The notes: generated by a model from the letters alone, not told the origin. Shown: positions 9,966 to 23,016, counted from the stretch's first letter. The stretch: 64,000 bases of DNA from Promethearchaeota archaeon (GCA_029838195.1 JALGVJ010000036.1:1-64000); one strand, 5' to 3'. Program-made: numbers and translations.

Positions 9966-11126
9966 TTAATAAAAGGGAAAATGGTATTCTGAGTTTTTAG
10001 TCTCTTCAAGAGAGCGTAGTTCTAGTTCTTTATCAATAAACCCTTCAATGTTACATATAAATCGATATTCTTTTTCTAAACAAAGAGTTATTGCTATTCC
10101 TTTTTTGTTCATGCGAGAAGTTCGTCCAATTCGATGAACATAATTTTCAGGATATTGGGGGATGTCATAATTTATTACATGAGATACGTTTTTTATATCC
10201 AATCCCCTGGCAGCGACATCGGTTGCTATGAGTAAATTTATCTGCTTTTTTCGAAAAGCTTTAAGTATTTGTTCGCGTTGATATTGAGAGAGATCTCCCG
10301 AGATAAGACCGACTTTATACTTTAAGTTTCTACGATAGTTTAATTTACGAGATAACCAAGAGGCGGTTTTTTTAGTGTTTACAAAAACTAGCGCATGTCG
10401 TGGCTGTTCTTTATTTAAGATTTGTAGAAATGCGAGATATTTTTGTTCGAATCGTTCTATCATGTAGTAATATTGTTTAGTGTTTCTAACTGTTAATTCA
10501 TCTCTACTCAGATTTATGAATAAGAATGAATTTTTCGTGAATTTTTTCACCAAATTTCTCATGTCTTGATCGAGTGTTGCCGAAAAGAGCATGAGTTGAT
10601 TCTTTTTCGAAACTTCTTTAATTGATGTTAGAATATACTTGATATCCGGTGAAAAACCCATATCCCATAAACGATCTGCCTCATCTAAAACAATAAATTT
10701 AATATTTTTAAATTGTAAATGTCCTCTTTTGTATAAATCAATAATTCTTCCGGGAGTTCCAATAATAACATGTACTCCACGATGTAACCTTTCAATTTGC
10801 TTGTTAATTGAAACACCCCCATAAATAACGGCAGATCTTGCATGATGGGGTCGGATTTTTTCAAATACCTCATGAATTTGTTTTGCTAATTCCCGGGTGG
10901 GTACCAAAATGAGACATTCATTATGAACCGAATTTAGTTTTTCTAAAATGGGAAGTAAAAAAGCAAGCGTTTTACCTGAACCCGTTTTTGCTTGTACCAT
11001 TATGTTCTTGTTTTCTAAAATCATGGGTATGGTTTTTGCTTGAACGGGCGTTGGAGTCGAAATATTAAAGACGGCCTTTAATTTATTTGCTATTTGCGGT
11101 TTAATTCCAAGATTAATGAAATTCAA
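9966..11126 (-). CDS. DEAD-box RNA helicase
   Basis: Q motif PTPVQ, AKTGSGKT, PTRELA, TPGR, DEAD, SAT, ARGLD, HRIGRTSR. Confidence 0.95.
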   Translation of the reverse strand: MNFINLGIKPQIANKLKAVFNISTPTPVQAKTIPMILENKNIMVQAKTGSGKTLAFLLPILEKLNSVHNECLILVPTRELAKQIHEVFEKIRPHHARSAVIYGGVSINKQIERLHRGVHVIIGTPGRIIDLYKRGHLQFKNIKFIVLDEADRLWDMGFSPDIKYILTSIKEVSKKNQLMLFSATLDQDMRNLVKKFTKNSFLFINLSRDELTVRNTKQYYYMIERFEQKYLAFLQILNKEQPRHALVFVNTKKTASWLSRKLNYRRNLKYKVGLISGDLSQYQREQILKAFRKKQINLLIATDVAARGLDIKNVSHVINYDIPQYPENYVHRIGRTSRMNKKGIAITLCLEKEYRFICNIEGFIDKELELRSLEETKNSEYHFPFY

Positions 11127-11400
11127 TTAAATACACTTGATTGTCTTAACTTATAATAATATTTTCAAAGAAGTAAATATTTAAAATGTAATAAATTTTA
11201 TGAGAAAAATTCAAAAATCCACGATTTTTTTAACCGTAATTTAATTTTCTTATACAAATCCCCGAGGAAGAATAATTTAGATAAAAAATCCGGTTTTCTC
11301 TGAGAATCGAGAATTAAAGAGCCATTAGAATTTTGTGCTAAGTTATAAGTGTATTTTTGGTTGTAATAATGGGAAGAACAATGGGATGGAGCCCTTAATT

Positions 11401-12753
11401 TCAGAAATTAGGCAATCTTTTAATTTTAGTCCACTCTTTGTCCATTAAAAAATCAAGATCGTTTAAAGAAGATTTGGAAATATGAATTAAATCAATGATT
11501 AGTGTAGATAAAGTGAAATTTTCGATACCAAACCCTCTATTTTTCTTATAATGATAAGCTTCTCGGAATCCACTAGTTCTTACCATGTTTAGCGTTTTTT
11601 GCACTAATTCTAAGGCAACATTGATAAAACCATGATTAAAAAGCCCTTTAATGATTAACCAATTAATTACGATTCTTGGCATGCTAATCCTCCAATAATT
11701 TTCATTAAAATATTGCTGGTTTTCATCAATTGCAATAAGAGGGACGGGATTCTTCGTCCAAAATTCATTTTCATTTAGGAGATGATCTTCTACTAATGTT
11801 GCAGCAATAGGTATGGGCAAATCATCAATTATCAAGGGAATAAATGAAGTAGCTGATTTTATTGGAGCACCAAATATATTTTCCTCAAGTGCGTTATTGA
11901 ATAAGCCTATATCCGGTTTCCAATAATATTTAATTAGAGAATTAGTTAATTCACTTGCGATTTTAAGCAATTTCCTTTTTTCTCCATTCTGTTTCAATTC
12001 GCCATGAAGAAAAGCCAAATCTTTACAATCTTGAATGAAAAGGCTGTTAAAGATTATATCTTCATGAAAAAGCCGGTCATCCTTTTTATTAAAAAAGAGT
12101 TCATGGTTAGATTTTTTATTAAAAATAGGCTTTTTAATCATTTGAACTCTATTCTTTTCTTCAGAATTGCCCCGTGTTTCAGTATTTTTCAAGAAAACCT
12201 CATTAACGGGCAATTTCTCAATTAACCATTCCCAAGGATGATAAATTTTAAGTACAAATGGATTTCGTGTTTGATTAATGCGTGCTTTTAATAAATAATC
12301 ATGAAACTTCTTAGATCTTGATAAAAATTCGGTTAGAAATTCCATATTTCGCTCTTTATCATGAATGGCCTTTAAGGCATGCGCAACAAGCGGATTAATC
12401 GTAAGGGAATGACGATCTTGTTTTTCAAGAGCCTCAAGGAGAAGAGGAGAGAATTCTTTTTGATTCAAATTCCAAATATTTATTCTCTTAAAATTTCCAT
12501 TTTCACTTTGGTTAAAAAATAAGCCGATAAATTCTTTTTTAGCTCTTTCAAGATTTACATGACTATTAACAATGATGTGAAAACATGAATATTCTAAATG
12601 CTGATAAGGAAAAAAATCTTTATGGGGGCACGTGTATGAGATGGTTTGAGAAGTATTTTCCGGATGATTTATGATTTTAAAATTCAGTTCTAGAATATCT
12701 CTTGCTTTTTGTTCTAAAAAGTTAGTATCTAATGGGTTTTCAGATGCTTTCAA
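11401..12753 (-). CDS. GH63/MGH1-like (alpha/alpha)6 glycoside hydrolase homologue, motifs degenerate
   Basis: PYQHLEYSCFH (family P.QW.WDS.FH), HPWEW (HPWESG.DNSP), YWRISM..INWL (YWRGP.W...NW), GFREAY. Confidence 0.65.
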   Translation of the reverse strand: MKASENPLDTNFLEQKARDILELNFKIINHPENTSQTISYTCPHKDFFPYQHLEYSCFHIIVNSHVNLERAKKEFIGLFFNQSENGNFKRINIWNLNQKEFSPLLLEALEKQDRHSLTINPLVAHALKAIHDKERNMEFLTEFLSRSKKFHDYLLKARINQTRNPFVLKIYHPWEWLIEKLPVNEVFLKNTETRGNSEEKNRVQMIKKPIFNKKSNHELFFNKKDDRLFHEDIIFNSLFIQDCKDLAFLHGELKQNGEKRKLLKIASELTNSLIKYYWKPDIGLFNNALEENIFGAPIKSATSFIPLIIDDLPIPIAATLVEDHLLNENEFWTKNPVPLIAIDENQQYFNENYWRISMPRIVINWLIIKGLFNHGFINVALELVQKTLNMVRTSGFREAYHYKKNRGFGIENFTLSTLIIDLIHISKSSLNDLDFLMDKEWTKIKRLPNF

Positions 12754-12860
12754 TTTTATTAAAATGCGCCGGGTAATTGAATATTTAATAAGATGTAAAA
12801 AATTAAAAACTCGAAGTTAGAATCATCGAAGTGTTCAATATTAAAAAAGAAAATTTTTAT

Positions 12861-13412
12861 TCATTTTCTCATGAAGCTGGGAAGCATTAGATTAAAAATA
12901 TCTGCGATTTTTTTAAGTTTATCTTGAACCTTTACCTTAGTGACGATAAGCACGCTTCTTTCCAACTCATCTCGATCTAACGATCCTCCCGCATAAAGGG
13001 CTTCTTTTTCATTAAAAACCAAGAGAAATCTCACGTTGGGATTCGTGATGATAGAAATGTTTTTTGTATTTTTTAATTTATCATAATTTTGTTGATAATT
13101 AGGAGGGACCCCACTTCTTTCATTCATGATAATCGTGATGGAGACTCCCTTTTTAGCGATATTGATTAATTCATTAGTATAAAAATTATCGATTTTTGGA
13201 GTTGCAACATTTAAATATGAGGAAGAGGCCATGATTAATTCCATGAGTTTTTGATTTATATAGTTTTCATATCCTTCTCCTCCACTCCTTTCAATTTCTA
13301 CCATGCCAACGAGATTGAGGATCTTGTTTTCTAAATTTTCTACTTCTTTTTTTAACCTTTGATTGGCAATTTTTAATTCAATAAGGCGGTCAGACGACAA
13401 TGATAATCTCAC
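12861..13412 (-). CDS. Coiled-coil plus PLD/Nuc-like fold protein lacking the HKD motif
   Basis: N-terminal heptads, then YLNVATPKID...KGVSITII...NPNVRFLLVFNEKEALYAGGSLD. This follows PLD-like spacing, with HxKxxxxD and GSAN replaced. Confidence 0.55.
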   Translation of the reverse strand: MRLSLSSDRLIELKIANQRLKKEVENLENKILNLVGMVEIERSGGEGYENYINQKLMELIMASSSYLNVATPKIDNFYTNELINIAKKGVSITIIMNERSGVPPNYQQNYDKLKNTKNISIITNPNVRFLLVFNEKEALYAGGSLDRDELERSVLIVTKVKVQDKLKKIADIFNLMLPSFMRK

Positions 13413-13476
13413 TTTTCTTGAATTTATTTTATAACAAATTTAATAGAATATATGATAATATTTATTTTATTCAATT

Positions 13477-16071
13477 TTAACTTAACCTATTCCAAGGTAA
13501 CCCAAATATCAAGAAATAAGGGAAAATTTTTAAGATCTCTTGAGAAGGAGCATTTTGCGCCATTTTTCTAATTAAAAGTAACTTGCGTTCAATTGCATTT
13601 ATCATATCCTCAGAAATGAATTGCTTACGAGCATTTAACATGGCAGTGCCTATATCCTGCCCATTCAATAAATTATCATAAAAGGAGAAGGTAATTTTAT
13701 CCGATATTTCATCATCAGTTGAATTAGTTCTAAAAACAATACCGGTCAGGTTGTTCAATTGCAAGGAAGAAATTATGTTACTAATAATGGGAATCGGATT
13801 TAAAATCCTTTCCTTGTGTTCATTAAAAAATTGGAGATCGAAAAAAATCAAGGGTTGCGCTGTGAGGTCATGATCCTTAGAAATAAGGCTAAAAATTTCT
13901 TTTAATTTAAGAGTTTCATTCTCACTTGTTATTAAATAGCTTTCAAGAGGAATTGATGGAAAGTAAATTAAATTTCCAATAATATGGATGATGTTAAAAT
14001 TTTTTTCCTTCAATAACTTTAAGATATTTTCATGGGTGGCACTTTCTCTTACCAGAAGTTCTTTCGAGGTCAAGGTTGTTGAGGAGGTGAAAAATTGACG
14101 TAATTTTTCCATCCTTTCGAGACCATGAGGGAAAGGATAGAGGGTTTCTTTCTTGTTCAAATCATCATTCCATTTAAATGGTCCTTTAGAATTAGTTAAT
14201 TCAACAACTAAAGCCTTTATATTTTTTTCAGACGTGCCTCCAACCGCTTTTTGAAAGGAATCATCAGTGGGAAAATTAATTCCATTTAAATTTAAGTTAG
14301 GAGAGTAATGAGTAATGGAACAATTTAACATTAAGAATTGCTTGTCATAAATCAAAGTAAAGGGAATTGATAACTCATCTGTTAAAAAAACTAATTGGGG
14401 GGTAAAATTTAATGTTGAAATTTCAAATTGAGAGAAGTATTCTCTGATAAATCTCGGTAAGGAAAGATAAAGCAAGGTTCCCGTATCCTTAAGAGTAAGA
14501 TTCTCTTTTACTACTTCTTTTGATTCAAAAAGATGACCGGAGATTGCGTTTAGCTTAGTAGGGTTCCAAAATTCATTCTCGAGTGTAATAATTTTAATTT
14601 CATTGTTTTGAGAACCCATTTTACATGTTATTGATTGCGAAGGAGACAGTTGAATTATGAGTTTTTGAAGGATAAAATTCGGATCATAAAAAGAATTTTC
14701 ACTGGGAAAGGCATCTTCAAAAACATAAATCTTGGTTTTAAATAATTCTCCTTTAGCAGATAATTTGTTTAAATCTTTGAGTAGGGGATGGATCTCAGGA
14801 TCTAAAAAAGGAATTATTTTTTGAGCAAATGAGATGTTTTTTTCTTCAAATAGGGCTCGGTAAAAGATCATGTTCCAAAATTCTCTCTCTTCCCCAGATA
14901 AAAATGCAGATTTTAAACGCCACAAGTAATTATGAGTATAGAAATAATGGTATAATTCTTCTTCAGTTTGAGGTATTTTAAGATGATAAATTAACTTTTC
15001 GAAAGATTGGAAGAGAAACTTTTTTTCTTTCATTGTGAGAAAATTTGTAGCTGCTTCTGCCCACAATTCTATTAAACTTTTATCGTAGCTTACATTTGAT
15101 TGGAATGAGTAAACTTCTTCAAGGAAATTATAGACGTCATAGACGATTTCAAATTGATTTCTTTTCATGAAGAATTTAATGAATTTATTTAAATAATTAA
15201 TTGCCTCCATAAATGTCTGATATTTATAAATTTTATTATAAAGATTTTTTAAAATGGAAGTGATCCAGAAGTTCTCACCGATATCGCTTAAATAAATAAT
15301 TAACTCTTCTAAATCGGGAAGTAGAGTAGGAAAAGTACGCTCATTAATGACGATTCTTGGTAAATTTCCAAATATGCTTTTCAATTCATGGGGAATTCGA
15401 GTTAACAAGATGGTGCTAATTTCTTTAATGAACTCAGCATCTTTTGAAAGTCCATATTTAATATCAATATTTTCCAGAAGGACGTGAAGAAATACTGCCC
15501 GCTTACTAGGTTCAATTTTTTTCATAATTTTATTTAATTCTTTCATACTCGTGGTAAACAATTCTGTAGGGACAAAAGTTTTCCTTAAGAATATTAACAA
15601 AATTTGCAATTCCAATAATTTTAAGAAATCTCCTTTTTGTCTTACAAAATAAGAAAAAGAATCAATGAACTTTGATATGGCTTCTTCCGGAATTACCTCA
15701 ATTTTTAAAATTTCTTTTAATAAATCGGTAAAATGGGAATATAAGAGATAAAAATCATCTAATTTAATTAAAAATGAAAAATAACGTTTTATAGCATCAA
15801 TATAAAGGATAGTAGCATTCGGTTCAATGGATAGATCTTTTCTATATTTGAGACTTTTAATGTATGTCAACCAAGAATTCGATATTAGCATGATCAACTT
15901 GAATTGCTTTTGAGCATCTATCTGTTCATTCTTCATAATCTCAGCATATAAATCATTTAAAACTTTATCCGCCCAATGATGATTGGCATTTTTTAAAAGA
16001 TTGCGAGCTAAAGCTATTTTATTTTGAAATTGAATTAAAAATTCTTTAAATTGTTCTGCGCGTGCGGACAT
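13477..16071 (-). CDS. Large alpha-helical protein with C-terminal CHAT (caspase/separase-like) domain, catalytic dyad absent
   Basis: About 450 aa helical region, then GTLLY..LP..IR, IPFTLIYD, ATHENIL, NIIHIIGN (CHAT IIHFAGHG), LIFFDLQ (LVFLNAC), FSFYDNLLNGQDIGTAMLNARK, LIFGLP. Confidence 0.65.
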   Translation of the reverse strand: MSARAEQFKEFLIQFQNKIALARNLLKNANHHWADKVLNDLYAEIMKNEQIDAQKQFKLIMLISNSWLTYIKSLKYRKDLSIEPNATILYIDAIKRYFSFLIKLDDFYLLYSHFTDLLKEILKIEVIPEEAISKFIDSFSYFVRQKGDFLKLLELQILLIFLRKTFVPTELFTTSMKELNKIMKKIEPSKRAVFLHVLLENIDIKYGLSKDAEFIKEISTILLTRIPHELKSIFGNLPRIVINERTFPTLLPDLEELIIYLSDIGENFWITSILKNLYNKIYKYQTFMEAINYLNKFIKFFMKRNQFEIVYDVYNFLEEVYSFQSNVSYDKSLIELWAEAATNFLTMKEKKFLFQSFEKLIYHLKIPQTEEELYHYFYTHNYLWRLKSAFLSGEEREFWNMIFYRALFEEKNISFAQKIIPFLDPEIHPLLKDLNKLSAKGELFKTKIYVFEDAFPSENSFYDPNFILQKLIIQLSPSQSITCKMGSQNNEIKIITLENEFWNPTKLNAISGHLFESKEVVKENLTLKDTGTLLYLSLPRFIREYFSQFEISTLNFTPQLVFLTDELSIPFTLIYDKQFLMLNCSITHYSPNLNLNGINFPTDDSFQKAVGGTSEKNIKALVVELTNSKGPFKWNDDLNKKETLYPFPHGLERMEKLRQFFTSSTTLTSKELLVRESATHENILKLLKEKNFNIIHIIGNLIYFPSIPLESYLITSENETLKLKEIFSLISKDHDLTAQPLIFFDLQFFNEHKERILNPIPIISNIISSLQLNNLTGIVFRTNSTDDEISDKITFSFYDNLLNGQDIGTAMLNARKQFISEDMINAIERKLLLIRKMAQNAPSQEILKIFPYFLIFGLPWNRLS

Positions 16072-16131
16072 GATGTTTACAGAAATGATTTGTTTTTTTT
16101 TTAAATGGACTTTATTGCGATTAAATTTATA

Positions 16132-17304
16132 TCATACATCTCGGGGGTGTGTTTGACCAAAATTTTCTGTTTCTATATTGGGGTTTGTTAACCATCCTTT
16201 TTTTAAGAGTTTCCTTGTATATAAGAGGGAGGCCCCCACCCAACTCATGTTTTCTCGACCTGATACAGCAAAGATTCGAATTTTTTCCCTTATTTTTTCT
16301 GGAAAAAATCGCTTGAGTTGATTTTTAAGCCGCTCTTTCAAGCCAGGAATTAAGCTTCCTCCCCCCGTAAGAATGATATGAGATACTAAATCTTCCCAAT
16401 TCTCTCTCTCCCATATTTTAATTATTTTTGCAATGGTTTCATCTAGCCCGGGATGATTCACGTGCATGATATTTGGATAAAAAATCGGTTCTGATATTAA
16501 GATTCTTTCTAAATTTAATGTCAGGCGGGTTCCATCCGGTAAATTCACGATCTGGTTGTATCTGTCTATATTTTCTTTAATTTTGGGAAATTCTACTTCA
16601 AAATTTTCCACGCATAGAGACGTTTTCTCCTTAATTTCCCTTGCTAACCATTTTGTAAAATACATGTTTTGATTCGTGCTTTTTAAGATTAAACTCAAAA
16701 AATACTCCGTGAGATCTTTTCCTGCGATGGGAAATAAATCGCGAGCGAGTTCATTAGTAAACCCGTGTACTGCGGAAGAAATGCTAGTAAATGATTCTCC
16801 AAGGTTAACGATCACTCCCGTGTTTTTCTGTACTGCAGAAAAAATGGCTTGTTCTTCTGGTAAAAACAAGAGATAAGGAAATTGGAATACATTAAAAAAT
16901 ATATCTTGTAATCTTGTTTTTTCTTGCTCCGTTATATAAAAGGGTGTTAAAATAATGAGCGGTTGCTTAAATCGAAATTCAGGAATGATATTAAGCAAGT
17001 TATAATGAAAGAGAAAATAGTTAGAAAAAAGGTCTAAATTATTTTCTTTTTTAAATTCATGTAATTTTAAGACTTGTTGATATTTTAAAGCTTCATTACC
17101 GAAAAGATATTGGTTCTCTTCCTTTTCAGAAGGGAAGTAAATATCTTCGAGTCCTTCTATCACGCTTGAGGTAAAAAGAAAATCTTTCTTATCCGCATGG
17201 ACAGTAGGAGCAATAATTTTTGGAAAATCATCCCCAGCCCAACCAAATCTAAAGGTGGCTGAACCTAAATCCAAGATTAATGGACGTAATTCTAACCGGG
17301 ACAT
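16132..17304 (-). CDS. Divergent Asgard actin-related protein
   Basis: PLILDLGSATFRFGWAGDDFP (phosphate 1), TGVIVNLGES (phosphate 2), AGKDLTEY, AREIKEK, LPDG, ILTGGGSLIPGLKERL, SWVGASLL. Confidence 0.92.
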   Translation of the reverse strand: MSRLELRPLILDLGSATFRFGWAGDDFPKIIAPTVHADKKDFLFTSSVIEGLEDIYFPSEKEENQYLFGNEALKYQQVLKLHEFKKENNLDLFSNYFLFHYNLLNIIPEFRFKQPLIILTPFYITEQEKTRLQDIFFNVFQFPYLLFLPEEQAIFSAVQKNTGVIVNLGESFTSISSAVHGFTNELARDLFPIAGKDLTEYFLSLILKSTNQNMYFTKWLAREIKEKTSLCVENFEVEFPKIKENIDRYNQIVNLPDGTRLTLNLERILISEPIFYPNIMHVNHPGLDETIAKIIKIWERENWEDLVSHIILTGGGSLIPGLKERLKNQLKRFFPEKIREKIRIFAVSGRENMSWVGASLLYTRKLLKKGWLTNPNIETENFGQTHPRDV

Positions 17305-17347
17305 GAGCTTGTATACTCTTATTTATTTTAGGATCTCAGTACTGACA

Positions 17348-18244
17348 TTACACGGCATAGAATTGGATTTCATGAATGTATTCATCTACATCTTTCTTTA
17401 ATTGATATTCCTTTACTTGCAATTCTAATAATCCCAAGACTTTTTTGAATTCCTCAGCCATATTTTCAATGTCCACGTTAGCCATTTTCTGTACTGCATC
17501 TCTCTTTATTTTAAAATACTCTAGTCCTTCTATTATCCGTTCATAAGATTGATTAATGCGATTAACTAATTCTAATGCATTTCTCTCGGTGACTTTTCTC
17601 ATTTTCCTTAGGATAGATAAAATACTTGAAATTTGAGTCTCCCATAACTCATATTTCAAGGAATAATCTTCAAATAATTGCTTAATGAATTCTGCCAATT
17701 CAGTATAAAAGTTTTCCTCTTCAATTTTTTCCGTTTTTACCGGCGGTTCAGTCAATTTTACCGGTTTTACGGGATCTCCTGCTACTATCGGTGGTTTAAC
17801 TTTTTCGGATTCTATTTCATCTTTACTTATTTCTTTTTCTTCTGCCCTGATCACTGAAGCGGTTTTCTCATCCAGGGGTGTTTCTTCTTCCTTGGTTTTT
17901 TCCATCGATATTAAAGGAACTCTTTTTCTTTCTCCGGGTTTTACTCTTTGAGGGAGGGGGACATCTTCCATGAGATATTCTTCAATAATCTTCTTTTTTT
18001 CAGCGGTTTCATTACCTTTTCCAATTTTGATCATTTCTTCAGAACTTTTAGATTCCACATGCTCCCCTGTCTTTTTCTCCTTCTCATCTTCCGTAAGTGC
18101 GCTTAATAAGTTTTGAAGCGAACTTTCCGATTTTTTAGTTGATTTTAATGCCATATCTAAGGAAGGTGTTTTTAACTTTTCCTTTCCTTTTGAATCTTTT
18201 TTTCTCTTTTTTTTTGTAAGCGGCATGTGAAATTTCCTCCTCAA
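17348..18244 (-). CDS. Hypothetical protein: long charged/Pro-rich disordered N-terminus plus helical C-terminal domain
   Basis: K/E/P-rich first ~175 aa followed by amphipathic helices. First gene of the actin run; the start may be the ATG at 18226. Confidence 0.7.
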   Translation of the reverse strand: MRRKFHMPLTKKKRKKDSKGKEKLKTPSLDMALKSTKKSESSLQNLLSALTEDEKEKKTGEHVESKSSEEMIKIGKGNETAEKKKIIEEYLMEDVPLPQRVKPGERKRVPLISMEKTKEEETPLDEKTASVIRAEEKEISKDEIESEKVKPPIVAGDPVKPVKLTEPPVKTEKIEEENFYTELAEFIKQLFEDYSLKYELWETQISSILSILRKMRKVTERNALELVNRINQSYERIIEGLEYFKIKRDAVQKMANVDIENMAEEFKKVLGLLELQVKEYQLKKDVDEYIHEIQFYAV

Positions 18245-18329
18245 GTTGAGCGTCTAGATACTTAATAAAATATTTCCTTTATAAATTTAATTTTATCAAA
18301 GGATCAAATGGTTAACATGATAATACTTA

Positions 18330-18545
18330 TCATATCTGATCAAAAAATCTATTATAAAAAATGGCCTAAAGGAGTACCTAAGGAAATTGAAATTCCTAAA
18401 AAAACTCTAATTGATTTCCTCGAAGATTCCGTTAAAACCTATCCTCAAACTTATTTCATGGGATTTGAACTCACCTACGCTCAATTATTAGACATCGTAT
18501 ATCGTACTGCTACCAAATTACATGAATTAGGATTAAAAAAATTGC
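18330..18545 (+). pseudogene. N-terminal relic of long-chain fatty acid-CoA ligase
   Basis: SDQKIYYKKWPKGVPKEIEIP..TLIDFLEDS..YFMGFELTYAQL...ATKLHELGLKK is the typical FadD N-terminus. Similarity ends before GDRV and the AMP-binding motif. Confidence 0.75.
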
Positions 18546-18650
18546 TTAAATACATTAAAACAAATGTATTTATGATAAACAAAAAATTTCTTCCCTCCAT
18601 AAATTTTTTATTCCTTCCTTACGACGATATAAAACACGTAAAAAATTTCC

Positions 18651-20567
18651 ATGTCCAAACAGCACCCTTCCGCCCGAAAAGAATTCACCATCAAGGACAA
18701 GCGGGGCAAGGAGGTCCTTACCGTCAAGCTCATCAATGGCGAGTCCCGCATCTTCATCGATGATGAGGAATTAATGGTATGCAAGTTCGTGCCCCTTGCC
18801 ATTCCCGTAAAAGAGATGCCAAAATTCAAAGACATCGAATCTATTAATGACATCATCGACCATTTAGACCATTCAATAGAATATTACGGTTCGGAAGCTT
18901 GGGAGGAATTGAGCAAGGAAGAGAGAGAGGAATTGGATTTTTTCGTGAACTGCTCGAACCTCCAAGCGTGGGTGGAGCACGATTACAATACGAGATTGCT
19001 CGATTATGCCCTATCCTTTCCGATCTTGAAAAAATTAGCCGAAAAAGGAGATGAGTACGCTCGGATGCGGTTCAAGGAAGAGCTCATCGAGTGGTTTAAA
19101 CGCGGGAGCAAGGAAGTACAAGAATTTATAGTGGACTCCTACGATCTTCTCGAAGAGCTCGGTGAAGATTTTTATAGCATGTACGAGCCGAACACGGCAG
19201 AAGTCCTTAAAGCCGTGGATAAAAATAAGCATTATTATGCCAGAGAAGATGAAGATTTTAACATTACCTACCTTAAACTTGAAATGGAAAGCCGGGACGA
19301 AATAACTCTCCTGCCTACCGTCTCAAAGCTTCCTAAATTAGAAAAATTAAAATTAAAGCTCCCGCCTCATTCGAAAAAGGACGTGGAATGCTTGAAAAAC
19401 CTCCAAATCCTCGAATCCTTGGAAATAATAAAATGCGATGCCGGACCGCTTCTCGAAATAGCCACCTCCCTGAAAAACTTGAAAAAGCTCGATATTTATA
19501 CTCATAATCAGTTCTATTTTCCGAAACATGCGGGCAGCCTGGCCAACCTCACGAAGCTCAACATTGGAGGACATTTCAAGGAATTTCCCAAAAATATAAG
19601 CACGATGAGATCACTGAAAGAACTTAGACTTGGAGGGTCTAAATATGAAGCCATCTCCGAAGAAGTCGGCCGGCTAACCAACCTCGAAGAATTAATTATC
19701 GAATATTTCAATCCGAAAGAAGGGACCACGGGAATCCCCGACTCCATCGCCAACCTCACCAATGTTAAAAAGATTTACATCATGAGATGCCGCTCCCTTA
19801 CACGCCTTCCCGAAGCCTTCGGCAACCTTCCATCACTAGAATACCTCTACATAAAAGATTGTCCGTCGCTCGAGGGACTTCCCGAGTCCTTCGGCAAGCT
19901 CCCATCGCTAAAAAAACTTGAGATAAAAAAATGCCCCTTGCTAAAGCGCCTTCCCGAATCGTTCGGCTACCTGCCGTCCCTGGAGGAGCTCCTCATCGAG
20001 GACACACCTATTGAAGATTTTCCCGCCAGCTCGGAAAAGTTAACCTCGCTCAAGAAAATTGAGATCCGCAAGCACCCGCTCGAGTACCTGCCCGCCCGTA
20101 TCGGCGAGCTGAAAGCCATTGAAACTATCCGAGTAGAAGAGAGTCCAAAAATAAAAGACGTGCCTACCAGTTGGACACGCCTCACCTCACTCAATAGCCT
20201 CGGAATGACCAAATGCGGGCTTACGGAATTTCCTAAAAAGGCGTGCGACATTCAAAGTTTGGAAGTTCTTGACTTGGATTACAATGAACTCGAGAGCATT
20301 CCCGATGACATTCTCAAGCTCAAGAACCTAGAAATTCTAAGAATGCTTTCTAACAAGCTCAAGGAATTGAACCCGCACTTGGCTGACTTGCCCTCCATCA
20401 TAAAGATGTATTTAAGCGACAACCGTATTAAAAAAGTACCGAAAGAATTCTTGAAACTACTACAAACCCCATTCAAGACGCTGGATCTGTTGGGAAATCC
20501 CGTGGAATACATTCCTTATGAATTAAAAAAATCTAAAATCATGGAGCTTAGTGGATACTATTATTAG
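18651..20567 (+). CDS. Leucine-rich repeat protein with Loki-type N-terminal domain
   Basis: N-domain CSNLQAWVEHDYNTRLL..FPILKKL...GD..A...FKEE, followed by many LRRs including 24-aa LPESFG.LPSL..L.I..C units. Visibly more GC/C-rich than neighbouring genes. Confidence 0.9.
   Translation: MSKQHPSARKEFTIKDKRGKEVLTVKLINGESRIFIDDEELMVCKFVPLAIPVKEMPKFKDIESINDIIDHLDHSIEYYGSEAWEELSKEEREELDFFVNCSNLQAWVEHDYNTRLLDYALSFPILKKLAEKGDEYARMRFKEELIEWFKRGSKEVQEFIVDSYDLLEELGEDFYSMYEPNTAEVLKAVDKNKHYYAREDEDFNITYLKLEMESRDEITLLPTVSKLPKLEKLKLKLPPHSKKDVECLKNLQILESLEIIKCDAGPLLEIATSLKNLKKLDIYTHNQFYFPKHAGSLANLTKLNIGGHFKEFPKNISTMRSLKELRLGGSKYEAISEEVGRLTNLEELIIEYFNPKEGTTGIPDSIANLTNVKKIYIMRCRSLTRLPEAFGNLPSLEYLYIKDCPSLEGLPESFGKLPSLKKLEIKKCPLLKRLPESFGYLPSLEELLIEDTPIEDFPASSEKLTSLKKIEIRKHPLEYLPARIGELKAIETIRVEESPKIKDVPTSWTRLTSLNSLGMTKCGLTEFPKKACDIQSLEVLDLDYNELESIPDDILKLKNLEILRMLSNKLKELNPHLADLPSIIKMYLSDNRIKKVPKEFLKLLQTPFKTLDLLGNPVEYIPYELKKSKIMELSGYYY
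19800..20010 (+). repeat. Three ~72-bp tandem coding repeats (LRR units)
   Basis: cttcccga..c.ttcggc.a.ct.cc.tc.ct recurs with a 72-bp period. Confidence 0.75.
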
Positions 20568-20591
20568 ATAAACTAATTAATCTCGGCAATT

Positions 20592-21533
20592 CTACTCTTT
20601 CGTTAAATCTATAAAAGTGGCCATGGACTCGATGTCATCCACTGTCACTTGTTTATTATTTTCATATTTTTTACCATAATATTTGAGCAAGATTTCCGGA
20701 AACACGTTATTTTGGAAATGAAGCCACGCTTGCCCTTTATGATCATCGTCCATAATTCCCGAACACACGTGATAGTTTCCGGCCTCATCCTCGAACGAGC
20801 AGAGCGCAAAATTCCAAATGTCGGTAAAATCATACAATCCCGGCTTGACCCATCTTGCTTTTGCTATAACTTCTTCTCCAAAAAAAGTTATTTTAGTCTC
20901 TAAAATGCCGCCCAACACGTTCCACGCCTCCTCATAACCCTTTCTAAGCTGCCGCTGAATGAACTCGTTTCTAAGATCGTCTGAAAGGTCTGTCGGTTCA
21001 ATATCCTCAGCCAATTTGTGCTCTATCAAGAAGGTCTTGAAATCATCGGCATGTGCCTCATAAAAACCATTAGAATACATTTTATATAACTCATCATTTT
21101 CCATTAAATCCTTCGAATGAAATCGATTTTTTTTAGTATAGCTGCTACAGAGAATATAGCTGTTAGGAAGCAAACCCTTATTACTATAGGCAAAATAAAC
21201 TTCATAAGATTTTCCTTTCTCAGGTTCAATTAATACTTTTGCAACGGCATCGGGATGCGCTTTCACGTACAACGCAATCGTATTAGCAACTTTTTGTAGC
21301 TCGTCCATGTTCGTTATCTTTCCATCTCCATCCCGCTCTATGCGGAATGTAAATTCATTTCTTTTAATGCCTAAATAATCGCTCAAAGTAGAGTCCCTTT
21401 TAAATCCACCTCCATTTTCTGGAGAAAATTGAACCGAAATAGTTTTAGAATCAGGCAACACTTCGAGCAAATTTGTTAATCCATCAATTTCCTTATACAA
21501 TTTTTTTTCTAAAGATTTGATAAGACGTTCCAT
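20592..21533 (-). CDS. Hypothetical protein (possibly a 3' fragment of a larger gene)
   Basis: 313-aa ORF with no recognised family; its 5' end abuts the PCNA-like relic. Confidence 0.6.
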   Translation of the reverse strand: MERLIKSLEKKLYKEIDGLTNLLEVLPDSKTISVQFSPENGGGFKRDSTLSDYLGIKRNEFTFRIERDGDGKITNMDELQKVANTIALYVKAHPDAVAKVLIEPEKGKSYEVYFAYSNKGLLPNSYILCSSYTKKNRFHSKDLMENDELYKMYSNGFYEAHADDFKTFLIEHKLAEDIEPTDLSDDLRNEFIQRQLRKGYEEAWNVLGGILETKITFFGEEVIAKARWVKPGLYDFTDIWNFALCSFEDEAGNYHVCSGIMDDDHKGQAWLHFQNNVFPEILLKYYGKKYENNKQVTVDDIESMATFIDLTKE

Positions 21534-22146
21534 GTCTTATCAATCAACTACAGAAATCATTTTTGGAGAGGATGCTGTATTCATTACAATCAAATCACGG
21601 AAGTATGGGACGATCATTGAAAGAAAAGTGGAGAATCTAAATTTAAACCTTCCCGAGATTTCTCATGACACTATTTCAAGGCTACAACATGGTGCTTGCT
21701 TCACGGTTTAAAAAATGAGGTTACAATACATTTTTAAGAATCTTCTTTTAGATGATCTTGTAAAAATTATAGTTTTACAAAAACGGGTCATTTGGGAAGA
21801 GTTTAACGAAGATTCCAAAAATGAAATCATTTTAAGGGGAAAAAATGTTGTTATCAAGATCGATGAGGATCAGTTGGACGAGGAGGAAAATAAGGAATCT
21901 TGTTGTCAGAACACGTTTAGCAAGCAGTACTTACTGCTATTTAATAAAATGCTTCCTCCTTTAGAAAAACAAGATGAAATAATTTTCCATATTAAGAAAA
22001 ACATTCCATTAAAGGCTATCATAGAATTTAAGAAATTAGGCAATTGTCAGCTGACATTTTTCATTGCTCCTAAGGGAGAAGAAGACACTGATTTTGAGGA
22101 AGAGAAGGAAGAAAACGAGGAAGAGGAGGAAGATGGATACGGGTAA
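21532..22146 (+). pseudogene. Divergent PCNA (sliding clamp)-like relic
   Basis: ORFs 21517-21711 and 21715-22146 share a frame and are split by one TAA. The C-terminus FSKQYLLLFNKM....DEIIFHIKKNIPLKAIIEF..LG..QLTFFIAPK plus acidic tail matches the PCNA C-terminal pattern. The N-terminal third is missing. Confidence 0.72.
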
Positions 22147-22195
22147 GATTAAGTGTAATCCATTTTCTCTTTTTTCTTATTAATCTAAATATAAA

Positions 22196-22249
22196 TTTTT
22201 TTTGATTATTTCTTTTCTGGAAACTTTTTTTTGATTATTTATTTTCTGG
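22196..22249. repeat. Imperfect ~29-bp tandem duplication in T-rich intergenic region
   Basis: tttttttgattatttcttttctgg followed by tttttttgattatttattttctgg. Confidence 0.6.
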
Positions 22250-22269
22250 TACTCTCTTCCCTAACTATT

Positions 22270-22296
22270 AAAAAAAAAAATTTTAAAAAAATAAAA
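22270..22296 (-). terminator. Oligo-T terminator after rRNA 3' trailer
   Basis: Minus strand TTTTATTTTTTTAAAATTTTTTTTTTT directly follows the G-rich trailer. Confidence 0.45.
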
Positions 22297-22404
22297 TGCC
22301 ACCACGCTCAGCTGAACTCCTCCCCCCTAAACCCCTCACACCCCCATCCTCTTACACCTCTCACCCTCAAATTCTAAGCCCGAACCTATAAGCCCATTTC
22401 AACA

Positions 22405-22619
22405 CCAAACACTCGTGCTATTGAGAGCGGCAGGCTGAATTGGTCGCCCGAAAGCTCCCGACGTACACCCCCGCCTCACCTACCCCGTCTTTTACGGGTG
22501 CACTCGTCTCGTTTCAACGGTGTGCGTCACCACACCCCGCCTAGGTTCCTCCCACGAAACCTAACGAAACGAGAATAGGCGACTATTTTCGTCTCGTACT
22601 GACTCACGACGGTCTAAAC
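22405..22619 (-). rRNA. 23S rRNA 3'-terminal fragment (domain VI end with enlarged ES39), internally deleted
   Basis: Minus strand reads GTTTAGACCGTCGTGAG (PTC region), AGTACGAGA (sarcin-ricin loop), CGAAAATAG, a branched H98/ES39, then ACGAG.GC.CCCGTA.AAGACGGGGT.G.TG.GGCGGGGGTGTA..TTCAGCCTGCCGCTC.CAAT, matching the archaeal 23S 3' end. It is a GC-rich island in AT-rich DNA. Confidence 0.85.
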
Positions 22620-23016
22620 TCTCCATTTCAATTTCTAAAGCGCCCCCTTTTTCAAATAACGCTTTTTTTAATTCTTCCAAATTAACTCCTTGCTTGTATT
22701 CAAAAATAACCGTCAAGATCGCTGTTTTATTCTTCTCTACAATAACTGCATCACAATACATCATAGATAAGCCTTTATTGCCAAAAACCGTGGCAATTTT
22801 TCCTAACGCACCGGGCGTGTCTTCCATGGTTATCCTACATCGTATGGGCTTAGAGTCCTCTGAAAATCCTATTGGAAAAATTTTTATTTCCCTTGACTCT
22901 GAATCAGCAATCATCATCAATTGAGCATTTTCCATTATCCCTAAACTTTTTCTAACAATATTAGGAATCACTATCCGTCCCCGCTTGTCGATGGTAATGA
23001 TTCTGGCATCCCTCAT
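22561..23016 (-). CDS. AbrB/SpoVT-type DNA-binding domain plus ACT domain regulator
   Basis: IDKRGRIVIP..VRKSLGI (AbrB) and MEDTPGALGKIATVF (ACT). The last ~17 codons run into the rRNA-derived sequence. Confidence 0.85.
   Translation of the reverse strand: MRDARIITIDKRGRIVIPNIVRKSLGIMENAQLMMIADSESREIKIFPIGFSEDSKPIRCRITMEDTPGALGKIATVFGNKGLSMMYCDAVIVEKNKTAILTVIFEYKQGVNLEELKKALFEKGGALEIEMESLDRRESVRDENSRLFSFR

Follow-up and report, generated by a model that had tools for sequence, protein, structure and literature searches.

A conserved four-gene cassette with a divergent actin-related protein and predicted pseudo-enzymes in one order of Loki-type Asgard archaea

Introduction

Several actin-related proteins (ARPs) are encoded per genome in the Asgard archaea besides Lokiactin, and it is not known what they do or with which partners (PMC9834061, PMC12050087). 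In Ca. Lokiarchaeum ossiferum, four actin homologues were reported, with no gene partners described for them, and the transcripts of the three non-Lokiactin homologues were scarcer in culture than that of Lokiactin (PMC9834061). With which proteins, then, does a divergent Asgard actin work? The question is raised by a locus in a 64,000-nucleotide stretch of DNA from a Promethearchaeota archaeon (GCA_029838195.1 JALGVJ010000036.1:1-64000; hereafter the window), where five open reading frames (ORFs), one of them encoding an ARP, follow each other on the minus strand at positions 11401-18244. A first-pass annotation had read them as an operon for an ARP-containing complex built from three repurposed enzyme folds. 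In the present study, the locus was compared across 301 Asgard genomes, of which 68 belong to the window's own family (f1) and 7 to the sister family (f2); both families are placed in one order of Loki-type Asgard archaea.

The five ORFs were named DIS, ARP, pseudoCHAT, PLDlike and GH in the order of transcription (Table 1). The co-orientation of the genes and the gaps of 43, 60, 64 and 107 bp between them, as given at first pass, were confirmed by the ORF listing. The folds named there (a disordered and helical protein, an actin, a solenoid with a CHAT-like domain, a coiled coil with a PLD-like domain and a GH63-like protein) were recovered with Pfam, AlphaFold2 (AF2) models and Foldseek. The source assembly is Asgard, with a size of 4.5 Mb in 94 contigs, and the close homologues of the proteins are annotated as Promethearchaeota or Lokiarchaeia proteins of metagenome-assembled genomes, mostly as 'hypothetical'. 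No description of the cassette formed by the first four genes was found in the literature searched.

Results

Conservation of the four-gene cassette

Twenty loci were fetched for comparison, comprising 16 complete loci of f1, two loci of f2 (L036 and L037), and the loci L038 and L039. The order DIS-ARP-pseudoCHAT-PLDlike and the strand of the genes were identical in all the 16 complete f1 loci, which represent 9 genera and share 34-56% identity. The same four-gene order was found in the f2 locus L036, at 24-39% identity and with different flanks. Two further intact loci (L072 and L073) were found in the window's own genus, which is the 10th f1 genus, and in another genome of genus g6. The locus L037 is a short f2 contig that contained only pseudoCHAT and the start of PLDlike before the contig end, L038 was found to encode an unrelated CHAT protein, and in L039 the frame of pseudoCHAT was broken by two TAA stops.

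The pseudoCHAT gene was single-copy in 63 of the 68 f1 genomes and in 2 of the 7 f2 genomes. Elsewhere among the 301 Asgard genomes it was not found, save for one weak match to a different, intact CHAT protein. The profile search with DIS gave matches in 63 of the 68 f1 genomes and in all seven f2 genomes, and no match elsewhere in the sample. Five f1 genomes of genus g5 gave neither pseudoCHAT nor DIS. A loss of the whole cassette in these genomes was considered and is not supported, as PLDlike was present at a contig end in two of them, which therefore points to assembly gaps and not to losses. The ratio of non-synonymous to synonymous substitution (dN/dS) of all four genes ranged from 0.07 to 0.27 in close pairs and was similar to that of the neighbouring DEAD-box helicase. 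The dN/dS check proposed at first pass thus came out in favour of purifying selection, under which all four cassette genes stand.

Two nested pairs of genes

In five f2 genomes, of the genera g11 and g12, PLDlike was found immediately after DIS, with nothing intervening, and one of these genomes is a closed contig of 4.36 Mb. No pseudoCHAT and no cassette-type ARP was found by profile search in G213, G089 and G165, where the best actin matches were paralogues of 27-28% identity that are present in cassette-bearing genomes too; no pseudoCHAT was found in G094 and G237, which were searched with a single protein only. A further case was found in the genome G129, a congener of L025 and L026 with about 90% identity, which contained an intact DIS, a remnant of pseudoCHAT (residues 668-869, at L058:7179-7784) and an intact PLDlike. 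A recent deletion has taken the ARP gene here together with residues 1-667 of pseudoCHAT. ARP and pseudoCHAT were shown to be present or absent jointly.

The spacing of the genes was examined in 18 loci. The gap between ARP and pseudoCHAT had a median of 26.5 nt, and a T5 run (at least five T) was present in none of the 18. Such runs were present in the DIS-ARP gap in 8 loci, in the pseudoCHAT-PLDlike gap in 6 and after PLDlike in 14; in the window, too, a T-tract was found after the stop codon of PLDlike. Judged from gene content and order, the cassette is made of two nested pairs, with the order-wide DIS and PLDlike outside and ARP and pseudoCHAT inside. DIS-PLDlike is best seen as the older pair, able to stand alone, and ARP-pseudoCHAT as an add-on module.

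pseudoCHAT

The protein pseudoCHAT matched the Pfam CHAT family PF12770 with 36.7 bits, the cut-off being 24. Its AF2 model, with a mean predicted local distance difference test (pLDDT) value of 75, contained a helical solenoid of 22 helices at residues 2-447, then a small beta unit and finally, at residues 605-864, an alpha/beta domain. In the Foldseek search with the whole protein, the top ranks were taken by Csx29 TPR-CHAT (1e-8), the anti-sigma factor DdvA (1e-7) and separase (5e-6). The whole-chain TM-scores were low (about 0.2) because the protein is multi-domain. When residues 605-864 were aligned with VIA-align, the SAVED-CHAT structure 8tl0 was matched with a Z of 15.8 and a root-mean-square deviation of 3.2 over 189 residues, and caspases and metacaspases with Z of 12-13. 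A sequence search of the PDB with the pseudoCHAT profile gave nothing significant. By its predicted structure, pseudoCHAT possesses both the CHAT fold and the architecture of the TPR-CHAT and separase type, in which an N-terminal solenoid stands before a caspase-like domain.

For the catalytic dyad, three CHAT proteins of the same class that are intact (Pfam CHAT, E from 1e-22 to 1e-30) served as the reference to which this domain was aligned. Where these have 'AGH', the cassette proteins have 'GN', and a four-residue gap stands in place of 'NAC(E/D)S'. The position of the catalytic His was occupied by Asn700, which was invariant in 19 orthologues, and the Cys segment was deleted in every orthologue. 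The alignment indicates that the caspase-type site is dead and that the His-Cys dyad of a clan CD protease is lacking. As the loss is common to all orthologues, it is ancient and not a local decay.

The same architecture of a solenoid with a caspase/CHAT domain is found in Csx29 of the type III-E CRISPR 'Craspase', in DdvA and in eukaryotic separase. Unlike these proteins, pseudoCHAT is without the His-Cys dyad, and its gene partner is ARP and not Cas7-11, a sigma factor or cohesin/securin. As a separate observation on CHAT proteins of the same class, a gene of genome G240 (L050:643-2307, plus strand) was found to encode a fusion of two domains, a Ras-family small GTPase (Pfam Ras, E 6e-32) and a CHAT domain (E 1e-30) that is seemingly intact as an enzyme.

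ARP

The ARP matched the Pfam Actin family PF00022 over residues 5-374 with an E of 2e-43 and 148.9 bits (cut-off 27). The best PDB relatives of its profile were actins (E 5e-53), which outscored every solved ARP. The source genome contained four actin-family genes, namely one Lokiactin and three divergent paralogues, of which the cassette ARP was the most divergent. A filament-forming actin proper was taken to have high identity to Lokiactin, a canonical D-loop and the hydrolysis residues Q137, D154 and H161. The cassette ARP shared 26% identity with the Lokiactin of its own genome, had 11 residues inserted in the D-loop region, and showed the substitutions of Q137 by Glu, D154 by Asn, D157 by Glu and G158 by Ser. 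It is a member of the actin family and falls outside Lokiactin and the filament-forming actins proper. In close pairs, its dN/dS was 0.08-0.17. The genes next to the other three actin genes of the genome were ordinary metabolic genes, with no cassette-type partners among them. One of these other paralogues, on contig C70 of G000 (L043:4952-6478, minus strand), encodes 508 aa; towards the C-terminus, its actin fold is interrupted by about 120 extra residues with four CxxC pairs that look like zinc ribbons; a 510-aa form was found in several relatives.

The repertoire of one Lokiactin and three divergent paralogues is the same as that of Ca. L. ossiferum (PMC9834061). Gene partners are given here only. 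With the eukaryotic ARP complexes (Arp2/3, Arp1/Arp11 of dynactin and the Arp4/5/8 modules of the chromatin remodellers) the likeness is one of analogy only, that of a divergent actin fold held by non-actin scaffolds, and no homologue of any partner subunit of these complexes was found. The crenactin 'arcade' cluster of the Thermoproteales and the bacterial ParMRC-type cassettes share with the present one an actin-family gene in a small co-oriented cluster and lineage-specific helical, coiled-coil or disordered partners; arcadin-2, for instance, acts on crenactin, as cited in PMC12050087. Their partners are, however, unrelated to those of the cassette in sequence and fold and include no pseudo-protease or PLD-like member, whereas the actin family to which the cassette ARP belongs is the eukaryote-like PF00022.

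PLDlike

The AF2 model of PLDlike (pLDDT 81) contained a long helix at residues 4-34 and a PLD fold. In the Foldseek search it matched NucT 6ehi (E 2e-7, TM 0.62-0.72) and Nuc 1byr (TM 0.64-0.75), followed by Zucchini, the pseudo-PLD FAM83 and TrmBL2, where the match to TrmBL2 included the helix; the atlas search agreed with these results. The Pfam family PLDc_2 was matched with 22.6 bits, under the cut-off of 27. The PLD fold was thus recovered by structure, and the HxKxxxxD (HKD) motif was not present. In the alignment with NucT, the HxK position was occupied by N-x-E, with Asn134 at the position of the His, the Asp was absent, and Lys and Asp were not conserved. The HKD motif was missing from all orthologues of PLDlike, so that no orthologue of PLDlike or of pseudoCHAT was found to keep the catalytic residues, which would have pointed to local decay.

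A dimerisation-type helix with a PLD fold without HKD catalysis is the layout, too, of the middle domain of TrmBL2/TrmB and of the DUF1669 of FAM83, and FAM83 is a precedent for a pseudo-PLD that serves as a scaffold. Archaea are already known to have a non-catalytic module of this make, a coiled coil with an HKD-less PLD-like domain, in TrmB/TrmBL2; the first-pass claim of three repurposed enzyme folds was therefore overstated. PLDlike differs from TrmB and TrmBL2 in that it contains no winged-helix DNA-binding domain and has its own invariant C-terminal LP(S/T)FMR tail. Neither PLDlike nor DIS matched any helix-turn-helix (HTH) family, including the TrmB winged helix PF01978. The hhalign comparison of both proteins with the TrmB-like proteins of the same genome was negative (probability below 1%), and the resemblance of PLDlike to TrmB is therefore architectural only. 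Longer or fused forms of PLDlike were not found, which is weak evidence.

The LP(S/T)FMR tail was also kept in the five genomes without ARP and pseudoCHAT and is therefore independent of pseudoCHAT. The idea that the tail (...LPSFMR) docks like a cleavage product in the S1 pocket of the dead CHAT domain is accordingly disfavoured, the tail being fully kept where that protein is lacking.

DIS

The C-terminal helical domain of DIS, about 120 aa long, was strongly conserved in both families, and the disordered linker of the protein was variable in both. In f1, a Lys-rich N-terminus and short conserved motifs in the linker were present. No Pfam, NCBIfam or PDB family was found for DIS, a PDB sequence search with its profile gave nothing significant, and nothing usable came from searching the ESM Atlas by features of the C-terminal domain. 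At 50% identity, 1.84 billion proteins yielded 94 representatives of the DIS family; none of the 94 was longer than 353 aa, and no fused form was found among them. The dN/dS of DIS was 0.10-0.25 in close pairs. The start of DIS is most likely the ATG at 18226, with a GAGGAGG before it, and not the TTG at 18244 of the original call (17348-18244, 298 aa); the original calls of the other four ORFs are those of Table 1.

The members of the DIS family gave recurrent matches to the winged-helix Forkhead family in the W-E-N-S-I-S region, with 13-16 bits against a cut-off of 27, and the matches to PBC were sub-threshold too. These matches may be taken only as a lead. Two ideas about DIS were rejected. 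A WH2/thymosin-like ARP-binding motif, 'L..AL.S.KKTE', near the N-terminus was dropped, as it was present in f1 only and absent in f2 with or without ARP. A 'split TrmB', with DIS as the HTH part and PLDlike as the rest, was given up in view of the negative hhalign result and the sub-threshold Forkhead and PBC matches.

GH and the other genes around the cassette

GH matched the Pfam family PF22422 (MGH1-like_GH) with an E of 1.5e-28 and 100.8 bits, and aligned over its full length with TTHA0978. It belongs over this length to the same GH63 family as the mannosylglycerate/glucosylglycerate hydrolases TTHA0978 and MhGgH. In MhGgH, Asp182 and Glu419 are catalytic and Asp43 is essential (PMC6608630). 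Unlike in these hydrolases, in GH the essential Asp43 was replaced by Tyr and the substrate-binding Trp40, Trp42 and Gly180 by His, Glu and Leu, respectively, and the acid Asp182 by Glu (MhGgH numbering), with Glu419 kept. The catalytic and essential residues are thus incomplete in spite of the family match. Alignments with the intact CHAT proteins, NucT and TTHA0978 together bore out the first-pass statement that the catalytic motifs are replaced in the CHAT, PLD and GH63 folds while the ORFs are intact.

The GH gene was found in 8 of 100 family genomes, at the cassette locus in six of the eight; four of these six carried it immediately after PLDlike and two about 3 kb away. The two copies examined directly after PLDlike (in the window and in L030) both had degenerate active sites, and an orthologue in genus g9, about 3 kb from the cassette, contained intact catalytic motifs. 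From its distribution, GH is a patchy neighbour and not part of the conserved unit. The neighbourhood conservation expected at first pass was accordingly found for four genes, in 10 f1 genera and the sister family, and not for the fifth.

In most f1 genera, and likewise in the f2 genus g12, a gene with AbrB/MazE and ACT domains was found directly upstream of DIS. In the window, about 4.3 kb of inserted DNA (18245-22560) separates DIS from this gene; the insert contained a leucine-rich repeat (LRR) protein gene (18651-20567, plus strand), a 313-aa ORF (20592-21533, minus strand) and a 143-aa ORF of no family. Directly downstream of PLDlike, most f1 genera contained a gene for an Eco57I/MmeI-like N6-methyltransferase of about 730 aa (e.g. 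L021:6898-9078), in place of which the window has GH.

Table 1. Genes of the cassette and its neighbours in the window
Feature	Coordinates	Strand	Description
DIS	17348..18226	-	Orphan, 292 aa; first cassette gene; member of the order-wide core pair
ARP	16132..17304	-	Divergent actin-related protein, 390 aa; Pfam Actin
pseudoCHAT	13477..16071	-	864 aa; predicted TPR-like helical solenoid, small beta domain and caspase/CHAT fold without His-Cys dyad
PLDlike	12861..13412	-	183 aa; coiled-coil helix, HKD-less PLD fold and C-terminal LP(S/T)FMR; last cassette gene, core pair
GH (GH63/MGH1-like)	11401..12753	-	450 aa; degenerate active site; variable neighbour outside the conserved cassette
AbrB/MazE + ACT-domain gene	22612..23016	-	57% identical to L027:5512-5913 (MazE_antitoxin and ACT domains)

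A few further observations were made on the window. The G+C content of positions 10001-16000, the region of the cassette, was 0.30-0.31, which is below that of most of the window (0.33-0.40). No tRNA genes were found by ARAGORN in positions 1-64000. An isolated match to the last 90 nt or so of the archaeal 23S rRNA (Rfam RF02540, 56.9 bits) was found at 22415-22507 on the minus strand, just downstream of the AbrB-ACT gene, with no rRNA gene nearby.

Discussion

The explanation that we favour, with modest confidence, is that the locus is a cassette of four genes without enzymatic function, passed on vertically within one Loki-type Asgard order, composed of two nested pairs and acting by a scaffold mechanism. 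In this mechanism, pseudoCHAT would bind ARP one-to-one as a scaffold or a cap and would cleave nothing. The DIS-PLDlike pair, probably joined through helices, would connect the ARP-pseudoCHAT sub-complex to a cellular site or signal. Given its altered D-loop and hydrolysis residues, ARP probably serves as a nucleotide-dependent structural or switch subunit and not for bulk filament formation. We infer the physical binding, its stoichiometry and the role of ARP. A complex prediction of DIS and PLDlike with ARP, in which ARP was the scored partner, gave a score of 0.00, which is no evidence either way.

Several points weigh against this explanation. For co-transcription the signs are indirect, namely the short gaps and the distribution of the T-tracts. 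The T5 runs in the DIS-ARP and pseudoCHAT-PLDlike gaps make more than one transcript possible. That ARP and pseudoCHAT are jointly present or absent is known from few events, namely g11 and g12 (possibly one event) and G129. The gene order in f1 is partly a general synteny, since conservation extends upstream to the AbrB-ACT gene and downstream to the genes of the N6-methylase and the DEAD-box helicase, and the genomes are related, so that the counts are not independent. Finally, DIS and PLDlike persist without ARP and pseudoCHAT and therefore must have a function of their own, so that a single obligate complex of all four proteins is not required. These genomes, in which DIS and PLDlike stand adjacent and intact, give no support to an ARP-containing complex, as read at first pass, that would be an obligate multi-subunit one.

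The same observations leave room for a possible, though less probable, explanation by two unrelated two-gene units, in which, in an ancestor, the ARP-pseudoCHAT pair came by accident to lie between DIS and PLDlike and synteny has carried it along since, and no four-protein system exists. It would account for the five genomes with DIS-PLDlike alone, for the deletion of ARP-pseudoCHAT in G129 without harm to the neighbours, for the T5 runs in some of the outer gaps and for the wider synteny around the locus. However, the nested order survived in two families with 24-29% identity and with different flanks (L036), and when an insertion into a tight two-gene unit stays on the same strand in 12 genera, selection for co-expression is suggested. 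A more specific version of the nested-pair explanation is regarded by us as rather unlikely. In it, ARP and pseudoCHAT would pair as a heterodimer of their own, either to cap, nucleate or position the filaments of Lokiactin or to act as a nucleotide-gated switch, sited by a DIS-PLDlike adaptor.

It is improbable, in our estimate, that DIS, PLDlike and the AbrB-ACT gene constitute a TrmB-like ligand-sensing regulatory module whose DNA-binding part was split off or lost, with ARP and pseudoCHAT as cargo. The helix and PLD-like layout that PLDlike shares with TrmBL2, the position of the AbrB/MazE and ACT gene directly upstream of DIS in f1 and in the f2 genus g12, and the recurrent weak Forkhead matches of the DIS family would fit such a module. 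The Forkhead matches, however, stay far under their cut-off, and their recurrence comes only from the homology of the members, whereas the hhalign comparison with the genome's own TrmB-like proteins and the search for HTH families were both negative.

An anti-virus defence or conflict system, with the dead domains as sensors or decoys, is very improbable. CHAT, PLD and TPR domains together with a nearby methylase are typical of defence islands, the matches to Csx29 and SAVED-CHAT point the same way, the Eco57I-like N6-methylase lies downstream in most genera, and in the window an LRR gene is inserted upstream. On the other hand, PADLOC gave no match at an E of 0.01 or better for the five proteins (2023 library, bacteria-centred), and PHROGs gave no match. 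The nuclease and protease sites are dead in all the members, and the cassette is single-copy, fixed in position and vertically inherited across an order, with a purifying selection like that of a housekeeping neighbour. The five-gene operon of the first-pass annotation, with the degenerate GH63 protein as a fifth scaffold subunit, is the least credible of all. In its favour, six of the eight GH-bearing genomes carry the gene at the locus, four of them directly after PLDlike and with both copies examined there degenerate. Against it, GH was not found in the other 92 of 100 family genomes, which otherwise keep the cassette, T-tracts and the longest gap (107 bp) lie between PLDlike and GH, and the g9 copy is catalytically intact.

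Conclusion

Cassettes of an actin-family gene with lineage-specific partners are already known, and what is new here is one that is built around pseudo-enzymes. The cassette of two nested pairs gives a conservation-defined set of partners for an archaeal relative of actin, and it predicts that ARP goes with pseudoCHAT and DIS with PLDlike, and that the first pair is dispensable. The close relatives without the ARP-pseudoCHAT pair and the deletion in G129, a natural knock-out, provide natural controls. If ARP and pseudoCHAT bind each other, divergent actins as subunits of non-filament complexes would not be confined to eukaryotes, and pseudoCHAT would be a clear case of a caspase/separase-type fold turned into a scaffold.

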